IMG/VR virus record: IMGVR_UViG_3300009431_000005
Reading direction: 5' to 3' (one strand)
Source: an uncultured virus (IMG/VR IMGVR_UViG_3300009431_000005)
Taxonomy: Duplodnaviria > Heunggongvirae > Uroviricota > Caudoviricetes
Length of the DNA: 20,000 nucleotides
Shown here: positions 7,421-19,827 of the stretch, piece after piece
Layout of the letters: each line of letters begins with the position of its first letter
Position numbering within the stretch: position 1 is the stretch's first letter
Position numbers and translations under genes: made by a program
Notes under the pieces: model-generated
The model's input: only the letters and a program-made list of their open reading frames with translations
Databases searched by the model: none
Told to the model about the DNA's origin: nothing

Positions 7421-7456
7421 GCCGCTGAAGTTACCTCCAGCGGCGAGAGCGGTCAA
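7421..7456 (-). promoter_or_regulatory. Sigma70-type promoter for parB with overlapping palindrome
   Basis: TTGACC (7456-7451), 17 bp, TAACTT (7433-7428); GCCGCTGGAG-GTAA-CTTCAGCGGC inverted repeat over the -10 box. Confidence 0.6.
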
Positions 7457-7462
7457 CGCGGG

Positions 7463-8656
7463 TCAGGGCTCTTCGTCGTCCCCTTCCTCCATCTCCAGGA
7501 GCGCCCTCGCGCCCCCGGCCTTGACGACCTCCAAATACGCGCCCTGGGCGGCCTCCCGGAACTCCGGGTCCTCCTCCCACAGCGCGATCCAGGCGTCGCC
7601 CTTCTCGAACTTCCGGCCCCCGGCCCAGGATCCGGTGTACTTCCCCCCGCCCGTCGATCGGATCCGGTTCGCGTCCTTGAGGACGTGCCAGACCGTCAGG
7701 ATCGGCGAGGGGCCGTGCTTGAAGTCCAAGTACCACGTCGCCTTCTGATGCGGCGGCGCGCACTTGTTCTTCTTCGTCGTCGTCAGGATCAGGTAGCCGC
7801 ACGCCGGGCCGGACGTGCCGCCCTTCTTGACGGTCGAGACGCGGACGCAACGGACGCGCAGGGAGAAGGCGTACTTCGCCGCCTTGCCTCCGGTCGTCTG
7901 CAGCTCGGGTCCTCCGAAGCCGCCGAAGCCCCCGAGCTTCATCCTCTCCTGATTCACGAGGATGACGTGCGCGCGGGCGCGAGCGATCTTCTTGAACAGC
8001 TTACCGCACTGAGAGGACAGCACGCGGGCCTTCGCCGCGACGTGCGAGTCCTCCGAGGACTTCTCATCGACCTCCACCTTCGCGGGGGACGCTCCAACGG
8101 AGTCCCACACGATCAGCGTCGGGTGCTCGGGCGGCTTCTCGATCAGCCGGTCGAGCATCTTGAAGACGACGTCGAACCCTTGCTCCATGTGGTCCGGACA
8201 GACGTACACGAGCTTCTCAGGGTCGATGCCAAGCTGCAGTAGCGTCTTCTTCTCCAGCGCGTGCTCATAGTCGAGGTACACCGCTGTCCCACCCATCCGC
8301 TGACACTCGCGGATCGCAACGTGAGTCAGGGCGGACTTCCCCGAGCCCTCTGCGCCGAAGACCTCGCTGACCCGTCCGACAGGCCAGCCGTTGCCGAAGA
8401 CCTCGTCGATGCCAGCGAAGCCCGTCGGGATCCACTCCACGACATCCGCCAGCGTCTCCGCGTCCTCGGCTCGAAAGACCTCCGCGCCCTTCACGGACCC
8501 GGCGGCCTCGATCAACTCCATCGTGAAGTCGGGGCTGCCCCCCGCCTTCTTCCGGCGGGAGGCACCCTTCTTCCTGGTGACCTTCTTCTTGGTCTTACGC
8601 TTTGCCCTTTTTGCGGCGGACTTTTTTCTTCCGCGCAGGCTGTCCTTGAGACCCAC
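7463..8656 (-). CDS. recA: RecA/UvsX-family recombinase
   Basis: IPTGFAGIDEVFG.GWPVGRVSEVFG, Walker A GAEGSGKS, YLDYEHAL, Walker B IVWDSV, VNQER, TTGGKA.KY..SLR. Start placed at GTG 8656 after GGAGG. Confidence 0.93.
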   Translation of the reverse strand: MGLKDSLRGRKKSAAKRAKRKTKKKVTRKKGASRRKKAGGSPDFTMELIEAAGSVKGAEVFRAEDAETLADVVEWIPTGFAGIDEVFGNGWPVGRVSEVFGAEGSGKSALTHVAIRECQRMGGTAVYLDYEHALEKKTLLQLGIDPEKLVYVCPDHMEQGFDVVFKMLDRLIEKPPEHPTLIVWDSVGASPAKVEVDEKSSEDSHVAAKARVLSSQCGKLFKKIARARAHVILVNQERMKLGGFGGFGGPELQTTGGKAAKYAFSLRVRCVRVSTVKKGGTSGPACGYLILTTTKKNKCAPPHQKATWYLDFKHGPSPILTVWHVLKDANRIRSTGGGKYTGSWAGGRKFEKGDAWIALWEEDPEFREAAQGAYLEVVKAGGARALLEMEEGDDEEP

Positions 8657-11398: not shown

Positions 11399-11689
11399 CT
11401 ATTCGAGCACCCACCGACGGATGCGTCTCGCCGCCCGAACCCACCAACGTCGACGCGGAGCGTGCGTGACCTTCCAACGCAACTGCGTGGCGGTCGGCCC
11501 CTGCATCGGCTGAAGCGGGATCAGGTCCTCGATGAGATTCCCCGGACTCGGGGCCTGGATAATCGGCATCTGGAACTCGCGGAACCCGTCCGCGAGCTGA
11601 CGCCGCGCCTTGCGCCGTAGCCGCCACCGCCTCCAACGGGCTCGTACCCGCCAGATCGGAATGCGCTCGGGCTCTGGACAGAGCGTCAT
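11399..11689 (-). CDS. Small Arg/Trp-rich protein with gp23-capsid-like QPMxGPT segment (96 aa)
   Basis: ATGA overlap with the polymerase stop; PIIQAPSPGNLIEDLIPLQPMQGPT. Confidence 0.6.
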   Translation of the reverse strand: MTLCPEPERIPIWRVRARWRRWRLRRKARRQLADGFREFQMPIIQAPSPGNLIEDLIPLQPMQGPTATQLRWKVTHAPRRRWWVRAARRIRRWVLE

Positions 11690-14565
11690 GCCGCCTCCGC
11701 CATGCGCTCCCACAGCTCGTCGATGTCAAGGTGATCGAGGTCGAGGCCGACGAGCGTCCCCCACGTCGAGCCGACCTCACAGTCGGCGATGATCGGCACC
11801 TGCAGCCAGGACCAGTCGAGGCCCGGCAGCACTTCGTCGGAGAGCTGCGGCAGGTTCTCCATGATCCCCCTCGCCAGCGTCGCCACCTCGATGAACTCGT
11901 CGACATGGCAGTCGAAGATGATCGAGTCGTGGACGGTGAGGATGATCTTGGAGCGCAGGCCGCGCTTCCGCATCTCCCGCCAGATCAGCACGAGGGACAT
12001 GAGCGTCATGTCCGACGCGGTGGACTGGATCGGGAAGTTGATCGCCTGCCGTAGCGCACGGGAGACGATCTGGTCGTCGACGGAGCGCACCTCGGGCACA
12101 CGGCGGCGTCGTCCGGTGAAGGTCTCCAGGAAGCCCACGCGCTTGACGTGCCGCTCCAGCTTGGCGATCCCCGTCCGCAGCGCCGGGCGAACCTTGAAGT
12201 ACCGCTCGATGAGCTTCTGCGCTTCCTCGACGGTGAGGAAGACGCCGTCCTTCTTGAGCGTGTTGACGAGCGCCGGAGGACCACCGCCGTACAGGATCCC
12301 GAAGTTCACCCGCTTGGAGCGTGTGCGCCACGCCTTCTGGTCCTTCGGGTCCAGCGCCTCGTACCCCTCCTTGCCGAGCCCGCTCACGTCGATCGCCGTC
12401 TGCGTGTGAACGTCCGCGCCCGCCTTGTACGCGCGGATCATGCTGGGCTCTTTGAAGACCGAGGCCGCAACGCGCAGCTCGATCTGGCTGTAGTCGGCCT
12501 GAAGGATCAGGCCCTCGTCCCCGAAGCGCGAGACGTATGCGCGCTTCACGCGCCCGCCGTCCTTGTTCGGGATGTTCTGCAGGTTGGGGTTCGCCGACGC
12601 GAGCCGTCCGGTCACGGTGCCGTGCAGGAGGAACTCGCCGTGGAGCAGGCCGAAGGGATCGAGGCGCTCGGACAACGGGCGCACGAAGGTCCCGAGGAGC
12701 GTCTGCGCAGCGCGGTACTCCAGGATCGTGCTCGCCAGCTCGTTCCCGCGACGGTCCAGCTCCTGCAGCACCTCGGCGTCGGTCGAGAAGTGCTGCCACT
12801 CCGCCTTCTCCACCGCGTCGCGCACCACGTCCATGAACTCGGGCGGCTTGCCCTTGCGCTTCTTCGTGTGCGCAGTCTTCCACCGCTTGTACCTGAGCCC
12901 CAAACGATCGAGCCCGCCCTTCGTCAGATGGACGGGCTGCTCGCCGTAGTAGCCTCGGTCGAACAGGACGACTTGAAGCTGCGGCGTGCTGCCGGGGTTG
13001 AATGAGTCGCCCTTCCCAGCCGCCTCGCGGGCCTTGATGAACTTCCGGACCGTCGGCAACTCCTGGATCGCCGTCGCTGCCGCGTCCTGCTCGCCCTGGA
13101 AGTGCTCCTCCAAGTCGGCAGCGACCTCCTGGTCGACCTTCGCACCCTGGAACTCCATATCCGCGAGAACGTCGGAGAGGGCGGGCAGGAACGAGTCCGC
13201 GAGCAGCTCACACTTCTCCGTGAACTCGGGTGACTCGCGCATCGCGCGGTCGACGCGGCAGGTGCAGTCTGCGTCCATCCCCGCGTACCTGAAGATCAGC
13301 TCGCCCGGGATGTTGGAGTACGAGCCGCCGCGATCCGGGTCGCAGTCCGCGTGCGCAGCGATCCAGTCCTCCAACGGCTTCTCGTACCCGCCCATGCCGG
13401 TGTAGGCATACGCGAGCGTCTTCAGCCCGTGGGTGCCGCGCTTCTCGTCGAGGGTCAGGTGCGTCGTCATCGTGTCGCGCACGTTGAGGACCTCGACCTT
13501 GAGCGCAGCGCGGATGTGCTTCGCGTCGAACTTGCTGTTCTGCGCGCGTTTGTCGATCTCGGGGTCAGCGAAGAACTCCGCCAGGGCCGCGATCAGCGCG
13601 GGCCGCTCGTGCTCCTTCTCCCCGCCGATGCGCCACGGCGAGTCCGGGTGGTCGAACGGGACGGTGAAGCCATACCCCTCCTCGTCCGAGAAGCTGAAGC
13701 ACGCGAGCGGGGGGAATTGGTCCTGCCACCAATCGAGAGCGCCCGTCTCCGTGTCGAAGTACACCGGGCGGCCGTTCTCCCTGAACGCCTGTAGCAGCGC
13801 CAGGACATCGTCCAGCTCGGTGAGGGTGAAATACTCCCCGAGCCCGAGCAGCTCCTCGTGCTCGCCCTTCAGGAAGGCGTCAGCGGTGCGCAGCGCCTCG
13901 GCGAAGCGGTCCAGCTCGTGATCGAAGCGGAGGATGTACGCCGGGTGCAGGCAACCGAGCACGCGCAGGTCCGGGAACTCGGGTCGAACGCAGTCGAGCA
14001 GCTTCCCGGTGAAAGAGGTGATCCCCGTCTGCCCGGCCAGGAACTCCAGGCTCCCGTTCCCGAGCGCGACGATCAGGCGCGGCTTCCGTGCGGCGATCTC
14101 GCGTATCAGCTCCGGCGAGCAGGACTTGATCTCGGTCTTGTTGGGGTTCCGATTCCTCGGCGGTCGGCAGCGCACGAGGTTCGTGATTCCCACGCGCCAC
14201 TCGCCGTCCATGAAGGACTCGATCGAGTTCCGTAGCAGCGTCCCCGATCGTCCAACGAAGGGCGTCGCCTTCCGGTCTTCGTCCGCGCCCGGTGCTTCCC
14301 CAACGAAGAGTACGTCGCACTCCGTCCATTCCTCCGAGACGCAGCGCGAAACGACCGTGTGTCCGTCCGGCTCCTTCGCCAGAATCTTGTCGGCGGTGCG
14401 GTGATACTCCCCGCCGCCTAGACAGTCGGGGAAGTCAGCACTCCACGGCAGGAGCGAGCACCAAAAGCAACCGGACTTCGGCTCGACCGTGCCCGGCTCC
14501 ACGAAGGGCCGTGCCGTTGGCAGGCTGCCACTGGCAGACCGCAGTCGAGCTTTGATACCGCTCAC
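11686..14565 (-). CDS. polA: Family A DNA polymerase with N-terminal family-4 uracil-DNA glycosylase and 3'-5' exonuclease domains
   Basis: UDG: CFWC, GEAPGADED, PFVGRSG, TNLVRCRPP.NR.P...EI..C, HPAY. Exo: DTETG, NSKFD, YAGMD. Pol: TVTGRLASANPNLQNIP, DYSQIELR, R..SKRVNFGILYG, NFPIQSTA, VHDS. Confidence 0.96.
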   Translation of the reverse strand: MSGIKARLRSASGSLPTARPFVEPGTVEPKSGCFWCSLLPWSADFPDCLGGGEYHRTADKILAKEPDGHTVVSRCVSEEWTECDVLFVGEAPGADEDRKATPFVGRSGTLLRNSIESFMDGEWRVGITNLVRCRPPRNRNPNKTEIKSCSPELIREIAARKPRLIVALGNGSLEFLAGQTGITSFTGKLLDCVRPEFPDLRVLGCLHPAYILRFDHELDRFAEALRTADAFLKGEHEELLGLGEYFTLTELDDVLALLQAFRENGRPVYFDTETGALDWWQDQFPPLACFSFSDEEGYGFTVPFDHPDSPWRIGGEKEHERPALIAALAEFFADPEIDKRAQNSKFDAKHIRAALKVEVLNVRDTMTTHLTLDEKRGTHGLKTLAYAYTGMGGYEKPLEDWIAAHADCDPDRGGSYSNIPGELIFRYAGMDADCTCRVDRAMRESPEFTEKCELLADSFLPALSDVLADMEFQGAKVDQEVAADLEEHFQGEQDAAATAIQELPTVRKFIKAREAAGKGDSFNPGSTPQLQVVLFDRGYYGEQPVHLTKGGLDRLGLRYKRWKTAHTKKRKGKPPEFMDVVRDAVEKAEWQHFSTDAEVLQELDRRGNELASTILEYRAAQTLLGTFVRPLSERLDPFGLLHGEFLLHGTVTGRLASANPNLQNIPNKDGGRVKRAYVSRFGDEGLILQADYSQIELRVAASVFKEPSMIRAYKAGADVHTQTAIDVSGLGKEGYEALDPKDQKAWRTRSKRVNFGILYGGGPPALVNTLKKDGVFLTVEEAQKLIERYFKVRPALRTGIAKLERHVKRVGFLETFTGRRRRVPEVRSVDDQIVSRALRQAINFPIQSTASDMTLMSLVLIWREMRKRGLRSKIILTVHDSIIFDCHVDEFIEVATLARGIMENLPQLSDEVLPGLDWSWLQVPIIADCEVGSTWGTLVGLDLDHLDIDELWERMAEAA

Positions 14566-14795: not shown

Positions 14796-14809
14796 GAGCA
14801 GACAAGCAG

Positions 14810-14853
14810 GCAGGCCACCCCGGTATGTTTCCGAGGTGGCCTGCGCAGGTCAA
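14810..14853 (-). promoter_or_regulatory. Candidate promoter for the polymerase operon with -10 box in the loop of a 14-bp inverted repeat
   Basis: TTGACC (14853-14848), 17 bp, AAACAT (14830-14825); GCAGGCCACCTCGG / CCGGGGTGGCCTGC. Confidence 0.5.
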
Positions 14854-14875
14854 GGATGACCCAAAAAAGTCCCGC

Positions 14876-16597
14876 TCAGGGATTGGGTTCGATGCCGTAG
14901 GCGTCGATCTCCGGGTTCGTGAGGTTGCGAGTGCCCTTCGACATCTTCACACCGGACTGGAAGCCCGAGTGGCCGGAGAGCGGAGCACCCGCCGTCTCGC
15001 GTTCGATCTCGACCGTGCCGTTGTCGATGCCGCCACCCCACGGCGTGTCGAGACAGATCGCGGTGCGATTTCCCTTGATCTCGAAGCCGTCCAGGATCTC
15101 CAGCTTCTCGACGCCGGAGAAGGCCGCATGGTTGCGGTTCGCGTTGGGGTGGTCGCACTTGAAGCCCGAGACGATGACGTGCCGATGGCTGTAGCCGGTC
15201 GGCGTCAGGTACGCGCCGTGACCCTTGTCGGTCCAGGCGACGATCGCGCCGTTCGAGCGGAGCTGTCCGTGCTGCGCACCGTGGCTCTCGCAGTCGACGA
15301 ACGCGGCGAGTCCCCTGCAGCCGACCAGCGTGAAGTCCGAGCCGCCGCCGGAACCCTCGTGGATGCCGCGTGCGATGCAGCGCAGCACGAGGATGTCGCC
15401 GAACTGGCTGGGACCGGACTGCTGCCGGTTGGTCATCTGCAGGAACGTCCGTCCGTTCGAGAGGCCGTCCGCATACGGGAGCACCTCCAGGTCGACGAAG
15501 ACGGAGTCGCCCTGGAAGTTGTCGCCATAGAACGAGTGCTCCTGCGCGGGCTCGAAGGTGACGCGGCGGAGGTCCCACTGCGCGGGTCCGTGCGCGCGAC
15601 ACGCCCACTTCATCCCGTAGCCGCCGTACCCGTTCCGCGACTGCACACCCAGGTGCAGGTCGTACCCGGTGATGAGTCCGACGACGTTGTTCATCGCGGT
15701 CATCAAGGGCGCGTATGCGTGCTGGTTGTTGAAGATCCCGAGACCCTCCAGGCGGAAGCCGTCGACTCCGCCCAGGTTGCCCCAGAAGCTGTACCCGCCG
15801 TGAACGCGAGTCGTGTCCTTGCCTTCGCCGAGCAGCGCGACGTCGCGGATCACGTCCGAGTCGTTCCACGTCGCCGTGAACTGCTTGCCGAGCGAACCCC
15901 CGCCGATCGAGCAGCCGGGATACGGGCGGTCGCCTTTGAGCAGGATCACGTCACCCGGGCGAGCACGTCGAATCGCCTCGGCCTCGGGGTACACGAGCGG
16001 CAGGTGCCACTGGCCGTAGGTGCTGATGACCTGTCCCGTCTCCAGCATCGTGATCTTCCAGTCGCCGGGGCCGTCGCCGGTCGGCTCGATCTCGATGGTC
16101 GGAGTACCGATCGACACCTCCGGCGGAGGCTCGAAGCCGGAGTTTCCGCCGCCGGGCGGGTCGTACGGTCGCCACGGGACGCAACGGCGGTGCTTGCGAG
16201 CCCACCGGATCATCCGCGTGCGAATCTCCGGCGTGACGGTGATCGGACCGCGTCCGGCGATCAGGATCTCCTGGTCGACGCGCGGGAACTTGCAGCCGCC
16301 ACGCGGGCGGATCTCCGTCACCTCCCCGAGCGGTTCGACTTCGTAGTCGACGATGAGACCGCGATCCGTGCGGCCGACTCCGCCTCTCCCGTCCCCCGTG
16401 TCGCTTCCGCGATCGACTTCGCCCTCCTCGCCGCGAGCAGGCTCCGTTTCCGGATCGGGGTCAGTCTCGGGGTCTTCCTCGTGGCCGCCTGGACGACGGC
16501 CCCTGATGAGCTTCTTCAGACTTCGGGCCGACACGCCGATCGAGTCCGCATCCGCAGCGATCTCGTCGAGCGCCTCCCGCACTTCGCGTAGTTGCAT
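14876..16597 (-). CDS. Predicted right-handed parallel beta-helix (pectin-lyase-fold) protein, 573 aa
   Basis: EAIRRARPGDVILLKG...Y cap motif, V.L.GEG...T.V, F.LEGL.I, and Gly/Asn-rich beta repeats. AAGGAG RBS before ATG 16597. Confidence 0.7.
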   Translation of the reverse strand: MQLREVREALDEIAADADSIGVSARSLKKLIRGRRPGGHEEDPETDPDPETEPARGEEGEVDRGSDTGDGRGGVGRTDRGLIVDYEVEPLGEVTEIRPRGGCKFPRVDQEILIAGRGPITVTPEIRTRMIRWARKHRRCVPWRPYDPPGGGNSGFEPPPEVSIGTPTIEIEPTGDGPGDWKITMLETGQVISTYGQWHLPLVYPEAEAIRRARPGDVILLKGDRPYPGCSIGGGSLGKQFTATWNDSDVIRDVALLGEGKDTTRVHGGYSFWGNLGGVDGFRLEGLGIFNNQHAYAPLMTAMNNVVGLITGYDLHLGVQSRNGYGGYGMKWACRAHGPAQWDLRRVTFEPAQEHSFYGDNFQGDSVFVDLEVLPYADGLSNGRTFLQMTNRQQSGPSQFGDILVLRCIARGIHEGSGGGSDFTLVGCRGLAAFVDCESHGAQHGQLRSNGAIVAWTDKGHGAYLTPTGYSHRHVIVSGFKCDHPNANRNHAAFSGVEKLEILDGFEIKGNRTAICLDTPWGGGIDNGTVEIERETAGAPLSGHSGFQSGVKMSKGTRNLTNPEIDAYGIEPNP

Positions 16598-16606
16598 GGC
16601 AATGTT

Positions 16607-16630
16607 CTCCTTGGGAAAGAGGCCAAGGAG
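16607..16630 (-). promoter_or_regulatory. Hairpin occluding the RBS of the beta-helix gene
   Basis: Perfect 8-bp CTCCTTGG/CCAAGGAG; the 3' arm is the Shine-Dalgarno. Confidence 0.6.
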
Positions 16631-16638
16631 GCAGCCTA

Positions 16639-16734
16639 TCAACACGAACGTGCGGCGAGGAAGCACGCGATCGCCAAAAGCGTGACGAGCGTGCCCACGT
16701 ACAGGCGTAGGCGATCCTGGGGCGTCCGGGTCAT
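16639..16734 (-). CDS. Candidate 31-aa single-TM peptide
   Basis: MTRTPQDRLRLYVGTLVTLLAIACFLAARSC*; no clear SD. Confidence 0.4.
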   Translation of the reverse strand: MTRTPQDRLRLYVGTLVTLLAIACFLAARSC

Positions 16735-16759
16735 CGGGGGCGCGGGGGGTCAGATTCCC

Positions 16760-16797
16760 AAAATAGGGGACCGACGGCTCTGCGGGGCCGCCGGTCC
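16760..16797 (-). terminator. Long hairpin, possible minus-strand terminator
   Basis: GGACCGGCGGCCC-CGCA-GAGCCGTCGGTCC followed by CCTATTTT. Confidence 0.4.
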
Positions 16798-16852
16798 AGG
16801 CCCACCCCAGCGGGGGCCGAGAGACAAGGGAACCGTCCTACCTCGGCCGCCC

Positions 16853-16875
16853 CGGGGCCGCAAGCCCCTCTTTTT
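16853..16875 (+). terminator. Short intrinsic terminator-like hairpin
   Basis: GGGGC-CGCAA-GCCCC followed by TCTTTTT. Confidence 0.4.
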
Positions 16876-16901
16876 GCTTTCCCCGGGATCGGTGGTACTG
16901 T
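16874..16901 (+). promoter_or_regulatory. Sigma70-type promoter, plus strand
   Basis: TTGCTT, 16 bp, TACTGT with extended TGn. Confidence 0.5.
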
Positions 16902-16907
16902 GAGGAT

Positions 16908-17110
16908 ACCTACGGGGGACTGAAGCGACCCCGCATGGTTGTGAGGAGCTGAGAGAACCTCCTCTCGTCTTCCTAGACGACGGCCCCCGGGACGACCTCC
17001 TGACGCCCCGGGGGCCACTTTGGTTCCGCCCTTCCCCGGTCTTCCGACCCCTCTGTTCGCCCGGGGTCCGCACACCTACAATGCGCCCCTCAATGTTCCG
17101 AGGCGCGTAG
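16908..17110. ncRNA. Candidate structured RNA / long 5' leader (array of hairpins); strand not established
   Basis: At least six stems: 16913-16933, 16951-16966, 16965-16980, 16982-17016 (perfect 10 bp), 17038-17049, 17081-17108. Five of them carry UCC in or at the loop on +, i.e. GGA on -. Confidence 0.45.
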
Positions 17111-17127
17111 CGTCTCTCAAATAGATA

Positions 17128-17271
17128 ATGGATCACCACTGGAACCTGGAGCCGTCCGAAGCGGTCGCCCAGGAGGAGGTCATCGAGGCGGGTAGCCTGA
17201 ACGACGCCACGCTGGCGGCCATCAACGCGGCCGTCGCTGCGGCCGTCGCGGAGGCCCTGGCTGCCAAGTAG
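17128..17271 (+). CDS. Small acidic, Ala-rich protein (47 aa), only plus-strand gene
   Basis: MDHHWNLEPSEAVAQEEVIEAGSLNDATLAAINAAVAAAVAEALAAK*; strongly GC3-biased codons; followed by a terminator. Confidence 0.65.
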   Translation: MDHHWNLEPSEAVAQEEVIEAGSLNDATLAAINAAVAAAVAEALAAK

Positions 17272-17292
17272 CCGGACCTCAATCTCATCCCG

Positions 17293-17330
17293 AGCCCGGT
17301 CGCCCGACGCGGCGGCCGGGCTTTCTTCGT
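17293..17330 (+). terminator. Intrinsic terminator between the 47-aa ORF and the convergent primase
   Basis: AGCCCGGTCGCC-CGACGC-GGCGGCCGGGCT then TTCTTCGT. Confidence 0.75.
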
Positions 17331-17331
17331 G

Positions 17332-18348
17332 TCAGCGTCCCAGTCGTTGACGAATGCGATCGGCGGTGGACGGGACGCCGCGTCCTTCGAGCAGCATCTC
17401 CAGCTCGTCCCGACGTTCCCACGGGTCGCCCTGGTCGAGTCCGAGCACCGTCACCTCCGGCACGACAGGGAGCAGCGCAGAGTACAGCGCGTCGATCTCC
17501 TTCCCCGCCATGTGGTCGAGTGCGATCACGACCTCCTGCAGTCCCGCCGCGCGCAGGTGCGCGAACAGCCTGACCTGCTCCGGTGAGGCGAACTTCCCGA
17601 GCAGCGCGACCGCGTGCTCGAAGGCCATCATGTCGAACGGTCCCTCGACCACCGCGATGCGTTCGACGCCGAGGCAGTTGTCGTAGTTGAGCAGACACGT
17701 CCCGCGTTGGTGGAAGCCTTCCTCGTTCGGCTCGTTGAGCGACTTCGGGATGCGTTCGTCGTCCGGGTCGTCGCACAGGCGCGTCGTGAAGTACACCTGC
17801 GCGTTCTCCTGGATCACCGGGAACACGAGCCGGTTCCGATACCGCCCCTGCGTGCAGTACCCGATCTGGAAGCGTTCGACGAACTCCCAGGGCACGCCTC
17901 GATCCTCCAGGTACTCCAAGCCCGGACGGAGGCTCGGGGCCTTCAACGTCTTCTTCTCCGCGTCCGCGAGGATCAGGCACGGCAGCGGCAGCTCGCGCGG
18001 CTTCAGATCCGGGAGTGGCTCAGGCGGAGCGAAGACCTCGCGCACCGCACGCGCGACGCTCGTGCGCGGGGGCGTCGTCTCGTCGCGGAGGAGAGCCAGC
18101 TCCTCCATCCGCACGAAGCCACCGTTGAGGTAGCGAAAGAGCTGTCCGAAGCTACCGAAGGCGAAGCCACAGCGGAAGCATCCGCCGACGCGCTTCTGCA
18201 CGTTGATCCCGAGCTTGCGTCCTCGGCTCTCCGTCCCGATGCGGTCGATGCACGCCGGGCAGTTGAACTGGTACTCCGGTCCGCGCCCCGAGTGCGCGCC
18301 CATCCGCTCGTCGAGGTACGCGAGCAGGTTGGTGAGCTTGCGGACCAC
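17332..18348 (-). CDS. DnaG-type (TOPRIM) DNA primase
   Basis: Zn domain CPAC...CFRC, YL..RG, IGYC..G.Y.NRLVFP, YF..R, VVEGPFD, VALLGK, GDP. Confidence 0.9.
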   Translation of the reverse strand: MVRKLTNLLAYLDERMGAHSGRGPEYQFNCPACIDRIGTESRGRKLGINVQKRVGGCFRCGFAFGSFGQLFRYLNGGFVRMEELALLRDETTPPRTSVARAVREVFAPPEPLPDLKPRELPLPCLILADAEKKTLKAPSLRPGLEYLEDRGVPWEFVERFQIGYCTQGRYRNRLVFPVIQENAQVYFTTRLCDDPDDERIPKSLNEPNEEGFHQRGTCLLNYDNCLGVERIAVVEGPFDMMAFEHAVALLGKFASPEQVRLFAHLRAAGLQEVVIALDHMAGKEIDALYSALLPVVPEVTVLGLDQGDPWERRDELEMLLEGRGVPSTADRIRQRLGR

Positions 18349-18351
18349 GAA

Positions 18352-19827
18352 TCACCCCTCGAAGTCCAGCTCCTTCTTGGGCCGGGTGAGCTTCTTCTTC
18401 TTGACCTTCTTCTTGCCCTTCTTCGTGACCTTCTTCTTGCGCGTCAGCCCGACCGACTCCTTGACCGCGTCGACCTTCATCGCGTGCGCCTCGATGTCGC
18501 CGCCGATCCGCGTACCCGCCACGTCGAGAACTCCAGTCGAGGAGATCAGGCAGCAATCCCGTCGGATGTCGCACTCGATCGTCCGGCCGTCCTCAACGTC
18601 CCGTAGCCCGGCAGCAAACAGACGCGCACGACCGTCGATGCGTTCGTCGTCCGTCTGGCAAAAGGCGAAGGCCGCGTCCACGATGGCCGCCTTCTCGAAG
18701 GCTTCCGCGAAGTCCTCGATGGTGATGACCTCCTTCTGCAGCGCGGCCTGCTTCGCCTGCGAGCCCGTCCACACCGCAGCGTCGAACTCGCCAGCGATCG
18801 CGCGCAGGTCCTCGTAGATCCCCGCCTGCTCGTGCCGCATCTCACCGAGCCGCCGCTCCGGCTTCATGATGTCGGCGTAGTCGACGATGATGACGTCGGG
18901 ATAGAACTCGCGCGAGGCCAGGAGTGCGAGGTGCGAGCGCACCGTCGAGATCGTCGCCGAGCGCGTCGGGTACGACTTCACGAAGAGGCGGCCAGGGAGG
19001 AGCTTCGTCGCGCGAGCCTTCAGCTCCTGCACGTACCGTATCGGGTCGCTGCGCTTGTACTTCACGCGCAGCCCCATCAGGCGGTCGTCGTACCGCTGCG
19101 TCACCTTCTGGTCGTTCATCTCCAGCGAGTAGTGGGCGACGTTGAGACCGGACACGTCGCTCAGCGCACCGAAGCCGATGTTGATGAGCGTCGTGCTCTT
19201 GCCGCGCTTCGGCGGTGCCAGGATCACTCCCAGCTCGCCGCGTCCGAGACCTCCCGCGAGAACCGCGTCCAGGTGCTCGATGCCCGTGCGGACGCCGGTA
19301 AACACCTTCTGCGGATCGGTGTACCACACGGCGCGGTCGTCGATGTCGGCCCGGTAGTCAATCCCGATCTCCAGGAGATCCTCACCGACGAGCAGCGCGT
19401 CGTCGATCAGCGGGCGCACGTCGCGGTTGCCCTTATCCAGTCGTCCGGCTGCTTCGACGATCGCGTTGACGAGTGCCTGCTGCTTGCCGAAGGCCACCGC
19501 CTTCTGCATCACGGCGTGCGCGTCCTGAACGTCGTGCCCGTACAGCTCGCCGAGCGCCGACTCGACAGGAGCGAAGTCGTCCTTCCCGACGAGCGGGCGG
19601 ATGTCCTCGATCAGAGTCGGGTGCGTCGGGAGGCGACGCTCTTCGTCGATGTGCGCGAGGAGCGCGCGTGCGATGATCCGGTTCGCGTCAGAGACGAAGA
19701 ACGTGTGGTCGAGTGCCGTGCGGTACCGGATGCAGAATCCCGGCACGCGGCACATCACCGCCAGGATGTGATCCTGGAAGGGAGCGCCGAAGTCCTGGCT
19801 GTAGTTGACCGCCTCCTTCTTCGGCAT
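18352..19827 (-). CDS. DnaB/T4 gp41-like SF4 replicative helicase
   Basis: TGIEHLDAVLAGGLGRGELGVILA, Walker A PPKRGKST, HYSLEM, IIVDYADIM, VWTGSQ. Confidence 0.93.
   Translation of the reverse strand: MPKKEAVNYSQDFGAPFQDHILAVMCRVPGFCIRYRTALDHTFFVSDANRIIARALLAHIDEERRLPTHPTLIEDIRPLVGKDDFAPVESALGELYGHDVQDAHAVMQKAVAFGKQQALVNAIVEAAGRLDKGNRDVRPLIDDALLVGEDLLEIGIDYRADIDDRAVWYTDPQKVFTGVRTGIEHLDAVLAGGLGRGELGVILAPPKRGKSTTLINIGFGALSDVSGLNVAHYSLEMNDQKVTQRYDDRLMGLRVKYKRSDPIRYVQELKARATKLLPGRLFVKSYPTRSATISTVRSHLALLASREFYPDVIIVDYADIMKPERRLGEMRHEQAGIYEDLRAIAGEFDAAVWTGSQAKQAALQKEVITIEDFAEAFEKAAIVDAAFAFCQTDDERIDGRARLFAAGLRDVEDGRTIECDIRRDCCLISSTGVLDVAGTRIGGDIEAHAMKVDAVKESVGLTRKKKVTKKGKKKVKKKKLTRPKKELDFEG
18418..18445. 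repeat. 28-nt perfect direct repeat, second copy at 7241..7268
   Basis: CTTCTTCGTGACCTTCTTCTTGCGCGTC in both the helicase tail and the parB head; encodes TRKKKVTKK. Confidence 0.9.

Follow-up and report, generated by a model that had tools for sequence, protein, structure and literature searches.

The 20,000-nt stretch of DNA analysed here (the window) comes from a linear virus record of 22,613 nt, about 16% complete, and its recognisable genes, encoding a helicase, a primase, a DNA polymerase A, SSB, RecA, ParB and exonucleases, lie on the minus strand. The candidate RNA region falls within a 735-nt gap between the stop codon of the primase gene (17332) and the start of a gene for a 573-aa protein (16597). 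The initial annotation placed the RNA between primase and polymerase; the primase side of that placement is right, but the other neighbour is the 573-aa gene, and the polymerase lies 2.3 kb further on. No family, PDB or IMG/VR relative was found for the 573-aa protein, which joins an acidic N-terminal linker to a Gly-rich, beta-rich C-terminal part and for which a single-sequence structure model was unusable (pLDDT 31); the C-terminal part is reminiscent of a beta-helix. Alignment of the primase identified 11 related loci, 10 at 41–47% identity and one at 26%, none of which carries the 573-aa gene or any similar DNA. In the 10 loci inspected (all but L015) the slot behind the primase holds other protein genes or almost nothing, and because its contents differ among relatives we regard it as a variable cargo slot. 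One ORF in this slot (L010, 8297–8629) resembles the GroES co-chaperonin. No primase relative was found in GTDB genomes, and the nearest isolates are Bacillales phages with 36–39% helicase identity, too distant for a host call.

Several further features were seen among the replication genes. The DNA polymerase A gene (11686–14565, minus strand) is fused to an N-terminal uracil-DNA-glycosylase domain, and full-length relatives of the fusion occur in L007, L009 and L012–L014. An intergenic hairpin at 14796–14875 is accompanied by a TTGACC...AAACAT pair at promoter-like spacing ahead of a 77-aa gene, which precedes the polymerase in 8 of the 11 related loci. In the relative L014 (820–2096) the helicase gene is interrupted at residue 210 by an insert of about 1.3 kb, possibly an intein or intron.

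Table 1. Features in and around the gap behind the primase gene (positions in the window)
Feature	Position	Strand	Description
573-aa gene	14876..16597	-	flanking gene, function unassigned; absent from 11 related loci
Terminator-like hairpin	16854..16875	+	5-bp GC stem with T-run, tail TCTTTTTG; overlaps the -35 element
Predicted sigma-70-type promoter	16874..16901	+	TTGCTT, N16 spacer, TG extension, TACTGT
Folded domain A	16914..17028	+	predicted five-way junction; MFE structure identical to centroid
First ACCTCCT	16957..16963	+	mostly in the 3' arm of its own hairpin
Second ACCTCCT	16995..17001	+	in the open loop (9 nt) of hairpin 16981-17016, the most stable one
Block B	17020..17126	+	non-coding, 107 nt; folds weakly, with a single firm hairpin whose loop is AAUGUUCC
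47-codon ORF (P0001)	17128..17271	+	C-terminal stump of an unannotated family, members mostly 120-240 aa
Terminator-like hairpin	17292..17330	+	13 bp, -28 kcal/mol, tail TTTCTTCG; ends just before the primase stop codon
Primase gene, 338 aa	17332..18348	-	Pfam DNAG_N

The plus-strand promoter that had been proposed ahead of the hairpins is borne out as a pattern and was not returned by a generic search. It is the sole full match to the extended -10/-35 pattern on either strand of the 22.6-kb record, the full pattern appears in 16 of 3000 shuffles of the intergenic interval, and looser forms of it are found in intergenic DNA ahead of other genes at 7456 and 16641, both on the minus strand. A generic sigma-70 scan gave 0 promoters in 15500–18500, the site at 16874 being missed because its -35 hexamer matches at only three of six positions. 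Judged from the position of these elements, transcription would start near 16907–16909, 5–8 nt ahead of the fold, and plus-strand transcripts arriving from upstream may be kept out of the unit by the hairpin that overlaps the -35 element. No terminator lies directly 3' of the folded domain, and the downstream hairpin was not among the results of a terminator scan. The plus-strand reading of the locus rests on the sole promoter match, a start just before the fold and a terminator-like hairpin ending at about 17330.

The initial annotation described about 200 nt of consecutive hairpins and named dinucleotide-shuffled controls as a yardstick. Over the entire region (16874–17127) the folding z-score is -2.29 on the plus strand, with 4 of 200 shuffles as good, and -2.69 on the minus strand (1 of 200). 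The 5' part accounts for the signal: 16908–17030 reaches -4.23 and -4.40 on the plus and minus strands, with 0 of 200 shuffles as good in each case, and the 3' half (17019–17127) folds no better than shuffled DNA (-1.09 and -0.84), so that better-than-chance folding is confined to domain A. In domain A a 10-bp helix that includes three G-U pairs joins four adjacent hairpins into one closed structure, and since the multi-way closure depends on these pairs it forms on the plus strand only. The 3' strand of the closing helix extends across the A-B junction into block B; complementarity of this kind is matched by 184 of 3000 random 12-mer continuations. Among 370 segments of 120 nt, domain A ranks sixth on the minus strand and ninth on the plus strand (12 shuffles each). 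Five 120-nt segments of the record fold better, some of them in coding DNA, and the strongest z-scores in the record (to -7.5, 12 shuffles) belong to 8388–8628, the 5' part of the recA gene. A second hairpin cluster at 16740–16875, which runs up to the plus-strand terminator-like site and also contains a terminator-like hairpin of the minus strand (16797–16768), is non-coding, and its folding is not significant (-1.63 and -0.65).

The stretch from 16914 to 17028 is non-coding. When 12 genes of the window are used to train a codon model, domain A, block B and the upstream DNA fall below coding level in all six frames; the best frame of domain A scores -0.03 versus 0.56 ± 0.22 for coding pieces, a value near the top of those from shuffled DNA (95% mark 0.00). 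The profile of the protein family to which the downstream ORF belongs does not reach into domain A. Domain A was also considered as a decayed gene, and the codon-like GC periodicity that would have indicated one did not hold up. The Ala-rich tail of the ORF raised the question of a tmRNA, a candidate set aside on 0 ARAGORN genes, no Rfam match and the identity of the ORF as a piece of a protein family; ARAGORN likewise found no tRNA in the region. A TPP-like core, suggested by GCUGAGA, likewise has no support.

ACCUCCU is generally the anti-Shine-Dalgarno (anti-SD) sequence of 16S rRNA, and the 16S tail of the host of this phage may differ. Both reported copies of ACCTCCT are present. Dinucleotide shuffling of 16874–17127 gives two copies in 4 of 5000 trials, for a motif picked after the region had been viewed. 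There is no second pair within 254 nt anywhere else in the record, nor any in 244,670 strand-bases of the 11 related loci; shorter pyrimidine words show no enrichment (CCTCC, P=0.41; TCC, P=0.53). The two copies differ in predicted exposure, so that the reported placement in or at loops is accurate for the second and largely not for the first. Each base of the second has an unpaired probability of 0.74–1.0, and all seven are unpaired together with a probability of 0.43. The first (7-nt accessibility 0.08) pairs for the most part with GAGGAG in the same hairpin and is partly looped out in an alternative fold that is 2.1 kcal/mol less stable. The additional loops that had been listed, UCCU (16971–16974) and AAUGUUCC (17092–17099), are predicted to be open, and UUCC is also among the loops. 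Loops holding UCC number 4 versus 0.76 expected (2 of 300 shuffles). An exact-pattern scan of IMG/VR found the 17-mer around the second heptamer in 8 unrelated contigs, all without the hairpin, where it reads as ordinary codons.

A second contig, L002, carries another allele of this locus. It shows 0 mismatches to the window along flanks of 5,708 and 2,857 nt and along a further, partly overlapping stretch of 4,046 nt, about 12 kb being identical overall. In L002 block B is replaced by an unrelated block X of 84 nt (L002 2859–2942), which is coding and in frame with the stump, and the promoter, domain A and the terminator are the same in both alleles. Block X is not the reverse complement of block B, inversion having been looked for, and the rest of the record contains neither block, the longest matches being 11 and 13 nt. 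The replacement of block B in an otherwise identical contig indicates that half of the proposed RNA is dispensable or unstable; the retention of domain A in both says little, since the contigs have 0 substitutions anywhere. Comparison of the two alleles suggests as the simplest history two different deletions from a longer form containing domain A, block B, the gene start, block X and the stump, to which the closing helix crossing the A-B junction lends weak support. Block replacement or assembly error is a possible alternative origin of the swap.

The stump has the codon use of a real gene according to the codon model, and its ATG has no SD ahead of it. AGGAGGAGGT at 17171–17180 had been taken as a ribosome binding site (RBS) matching the loops, a role it loses on inspection: it spells the codons CAG GAG GAG GTC inside the ORF, with no start codon at SD spacing, and the window's four other mRNA-strand copies of AGGAGGT likewise fall within genes. 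The AGGAGG sites ascribed to several genes exist in reduced number, AGGAGG preceding 2 and AGGAG 5 of 26 candidate starts, a set that includes two misassigned starts. Block X and the stump together (76 aa) correspond to the C-terminal half of a family protein. Across 293 homologous proteins the median N-terminal extension beyond this piece is 70 residues, so the gene has lost its 5' end in both alleles, each cut at a different point. A near-identical full-length form was not found among the best 120 of 220 longer proteins, and among the 114 similar-length proteins listed only the 47-aa and 60-aa stumps match at 100%.

The family comprises 182 cluster representatives at E up to 0.001, with 104 loci in IMG/VR and 79 in GTDB genomes, the latter mostly labelled Acidobacteriota, and it was not found in isolate phages. 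Forty members share no common Pfam or PHROG family, and 6 proteins gave no NCBIfam match over the cut-off. An AlphaFold2 model of a full-length member (pLDDT 86, pTM 0.43) shows a single helix of 90 residues surrounded by short ones and has no fold match. Other observations on the family (P0052; loci L016–L099 and L111–L189) include many copies in genomes labelled Bryobacterales, members that repeat a conserved segment internally, and a position directly 3' of a long gene in several loci. At L059 (about 2640–2820) a second family copy seems to end just upstream of the matched gene, as tandem paralogues would. The 90% cluster of the 47-aa stump also holds an unrelated 561-aa protein (P0047), a database oddity.

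Searches for homologues of the RNA were negative throughout. Rfam gave 0 matches at the gathering score in the window, and in 16500–17450 there were 4 matches at E 0.5–7.4, all far below cut-off. Phage records shared only short stretches of DNA with the query: coverage never exceeded 10%, no match was better than E 0.02 among the best 20 of 42, and plasmids gave none. Exact-pattern scans of IMG/VR with a 19-mer of domain A and with a pattern from the stump returned only the contig of L002, and a 16-mer of block B returned 6 loci without similarity beyond 16–17 nt. A covariance model (R1) was run against 78 sources (505 kb), 27 records, 79 loci (340 kb) and 13 loci and matched nothing but the two alleles; these blanks are weak because R1 was built from one sequence. 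The absence of homologues is weakly evidenced in general, since the nearest relatives within reach are less than 50% identical in protein; closer proteins are on record for the primase (P0003–P0013, 51–55% identity) and for the stump (P0314, 74%). The initial annotation had looked to conservation of loops and stems in related phages; no homologue conserving either was found, so covariation lends the RNA no support. No RNA run containing the region was found, and three RNA runs of the same study contained next to no matching words, results that speak neither for nor against expression.

Pairing with the phage's own messages was evaluated with structural accessibility taken into account. Domain A is predicted to bind 22 phage start regions with a mean of -3.0 versus -2.8 kcal/mol for random mRNA; the best predicted pairings are with parB (-9.2), the stump's own AGGAGGAGGUC (-8.2) and a nuclease gene (-6.8), and the 1% mark lies at -9.5. 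The proposed match between the loops and the RBSs of this genome is not supported, since predicted binding to RBS regions of the phage does not exceed that to random mRNA. As bare duplexes, the second loop has a 9-nt match to the start regions of the polymerase and a 307-aa gene (-23.6 and -19.1 kcal/mol), which are two of the five other genome sites of the 9-mer. Both were rejected as specific targets, the gains of -3.0 and -1.9 being background once structure is counted.

Among characterised RNAs, a close likeness is to the cuckoo or alpha-r14 sRNAs (NfeR1, RSs0680; RF02344), with which domain A shares adjacent hairpins (four in domain A) and anti-SD sequence in loops. Cuckoo/ar14 RNAs are described as having 2–4 adjacent hairpins (PMC4615179), and NfeR1 as silencing mRNAs via looped anti-SD seeds (PMC10746234). 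The cuckoo motif CCUCCUCCC, which members carry in every loop, is absent from domain A, compared as an exact string, where the cuckoo paper also lists allowed variants; one CCUCCUCUC, one letter off, is present and mostly paired. Unlike in cuckoo RNAs, the other loops (UCCU, ACCUCCUGA and CCGCAU) differ from each other, a closing helix joins the hairpins, and the element is phage-borne with a gene stump behind it. RF02344 gave no match at the locus; two weak ones, of 7.9 and 6 bits against a cut-off of 58.8, fall in other parts of the record, and covariance models are described as poor for this family. Judged by its loop sequences, domain A is not a member of the cuckoo family, the defining motif being missing.

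Other likenesses are more partial. RsaE and RNAIII of S. aureus use unpaired C-rich motifs (PMC2790875), and domain A similarly presents unpaired pyrimidine motifs complementary to the SD; unlike them it has UCCU/UUCC loops rather than a conserved UCCC, no Rfam match and no terminator of its own, and the only UCCC in the transcribed part (17033) is outside any hairpin loop. The C4 antisense RNA of P1/P7 is described as multi-branched, heading its transcript and bearing loops complementary to an RBS region (PMC12197685), an arrangement that resembles the multi-branched RNA heading the putative transcript here. The C4 family (RF01695) gave no match at E up to 10, and the gene behind the present RNA is not an antirepressor operon.

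Taken together, these features suggest that a plus-strand cargo unit is decaying here and that the locus is its non-coding head, structured and probably transcribed. The unit would be self-contained, with promoter, folded RNA, gene stump and a terminator near 17330, from which host RNA polymerase would make an RNA of about 420 nt. Because the start and RBS of the gene are gone, this RNA would be effectively untranslated. Domain A would display ACCUCCU in an open loop, with the other copy able to open, and pairing of these heptamers with SDs of the AGGAGG type would damp translation initiation with little choice of target, much as cuckoo RNAs and NfeR1 do. We tentatively favour this reading, in which the stable head of a transcribed plus-strand RNA pairs with SDs through an open loop, as a possible and by no means assured account. 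The translational regulator RNA of the initial annotation gains from the non-coding fold, the plus-strand promoter, the one exposed heptamer and the setting in a cargo slot; it loses from the missing terminator of its own, the run into a gene stump, the replaceable 3' half and the lack of a homologue.

A somewhat unlikely alternative is that domain A is an orphaned cis leader, the 5' UTR of the once-intact gene, whose anti-SD copies masked the gene's own SD, comparable also to the C4 RNA of P1 acting on the operon it heads, and which controls nothing now. As this history would predict, promoter, fold, gene and terminator follow one another on a single strand, and pairing of domain A with the stump's own AGGAGGAGGUC lies between the 5% and 1% background marks. 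There is also a precedent in the leader of the type I toxin mRNA aapA3 of H. pylori, described as having two anti-SD copies that mask the toxin SD (PMC6733600); the two anti-SD elements beside a small-protein gene are similar here. Unlike the aapA3 gene, however, the gene here is the stump of a larger, soluble-looking helical family and has lost its SD, and no antitoxin RNA is evident. The intact family genes allow a more direct comparison. In 28 with clear starts, chosen by eye from 39 loci, an SD-like word stands just before the start in 27, strong sites of the kind such a leader would mask, but ACCTCCT occurs 21–250 nt upstream in 0 of 28. The folded RNA is therefore not the usual leader of the family and looks like a separate module. 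R1 likewise finds nothing near family genes, the RBS to be masked is missing, and no full-length allele is among the proteins listed.

It is also unlikely, though to be taken seriously, that the region is inert debris: GC-rich inverted repeats in a decaying slot, whether transcribed or silent, with no selected RNA function and with hairpins that may promote rearrangements at their edges. The absence of a homologue in any search, a gene broken in both alleles with block B lost in one, cargo that is different in each relative, comparable z-scores in coding DNA and a swap junction 3 nt behind the strongest hairpin would all fit. Four hairpins with a closing helix, two heptamers and an intact, well-placed promoter are, on the other hand, unlikely to arise jointly by chance.

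We consider it improbable that the unit is not real in the virus, the junction or junctions being an assembly artefact, or the hairpins acting at the DNA level or when the minus-strand operon mRNA is processed. The combination of 0 substitutions between the contigs with a clean swap of blocks found nowhere else in the record would fit an artefact, as would the fact that the L002 form (60-aa product) is on record from 1 contig. Against this, records of the 47-aa product come from 2 contigs in two sources (the longest 126,207 nt), which may share reads, neither the window's contig nor L002 contains an N, and domain A, promoter and terminator are unchanged between them.

On the minus strand the same hairpins had been read as a CsrA/RsmA sponge of the CsrB/RsmZ type, which would be released from the primase transcript by cleavage or transcribed by read-through as part of it. 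The GGA loops are indeed there: 5 of 7 loops of the minus-strand MFE structure contain GGA versus 0.54 in shuffles (0 of 300), the highest count of 352 segments of the record; three AGGA sites lie in domain A, two of them in loops; and this strand also folds well (z-score -4.40). Several GGA in hairpin loops are what CsrB, RsmY and RsmZ display. These loops are nonetheless the mirror of the UCC loops and no independent evidence, since hairpins read alike on both strands. A terminator-like minus-strand hairpin at 16797–16768, a weak one, lies 180 nt behind the last looped GGA. CsrA-family proteins are described as needing A(N)GGAX (PMC4005645), but that core is present in 3 of 9 GGA, none of the three with the N, and A(N)GGA stands at background density, 1.2 per 100 nt versus 1.0 in the genome and 5.1 in E. 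coli CsrB (3 versus 19 sites). The GGA strand has no promoter pattern upstream and no match to RsmY or other Csr families of Rfam, and no CsrA gene was found in 13 phage records. Phages have been reported to carry RsmA itself, proposed as a repressor of CRISPR-Cas (PMC8450108), an action that a sponge would undo. With the loops upheld and the site density and promoter wanting, we regard the sponge as very improbable.

Returning to the preferred reading of a plus-strand RNA that pairs with SDs, a far-reaching form of it would hold that this is a phage sRNA with an undescribed five-way-junction fold, whose anti-SD loops damp translation in trans and whose constant head acquires variable tails by high-frequency 3' block exchange in a clonal population; we give this little credence. 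A literature search for a phage-encoded anti-SD sRNA turned up one paper, on a host sRNA, and the accessible text of a 2025 review of phage sRNAs (PMC12197685) contains no such case, which together are thin ground for claiming absence. If the plus-strand reading is true, the anti-SD sRNAs known from bacteria would be joined by a phage-borne one of different fold, and phages would have a protein-free means of lowering translation. The by-products of the analysis are possibly weightier: a widespread, unannotated phage protein family, and a clean block swap between otherwise identical contigs.
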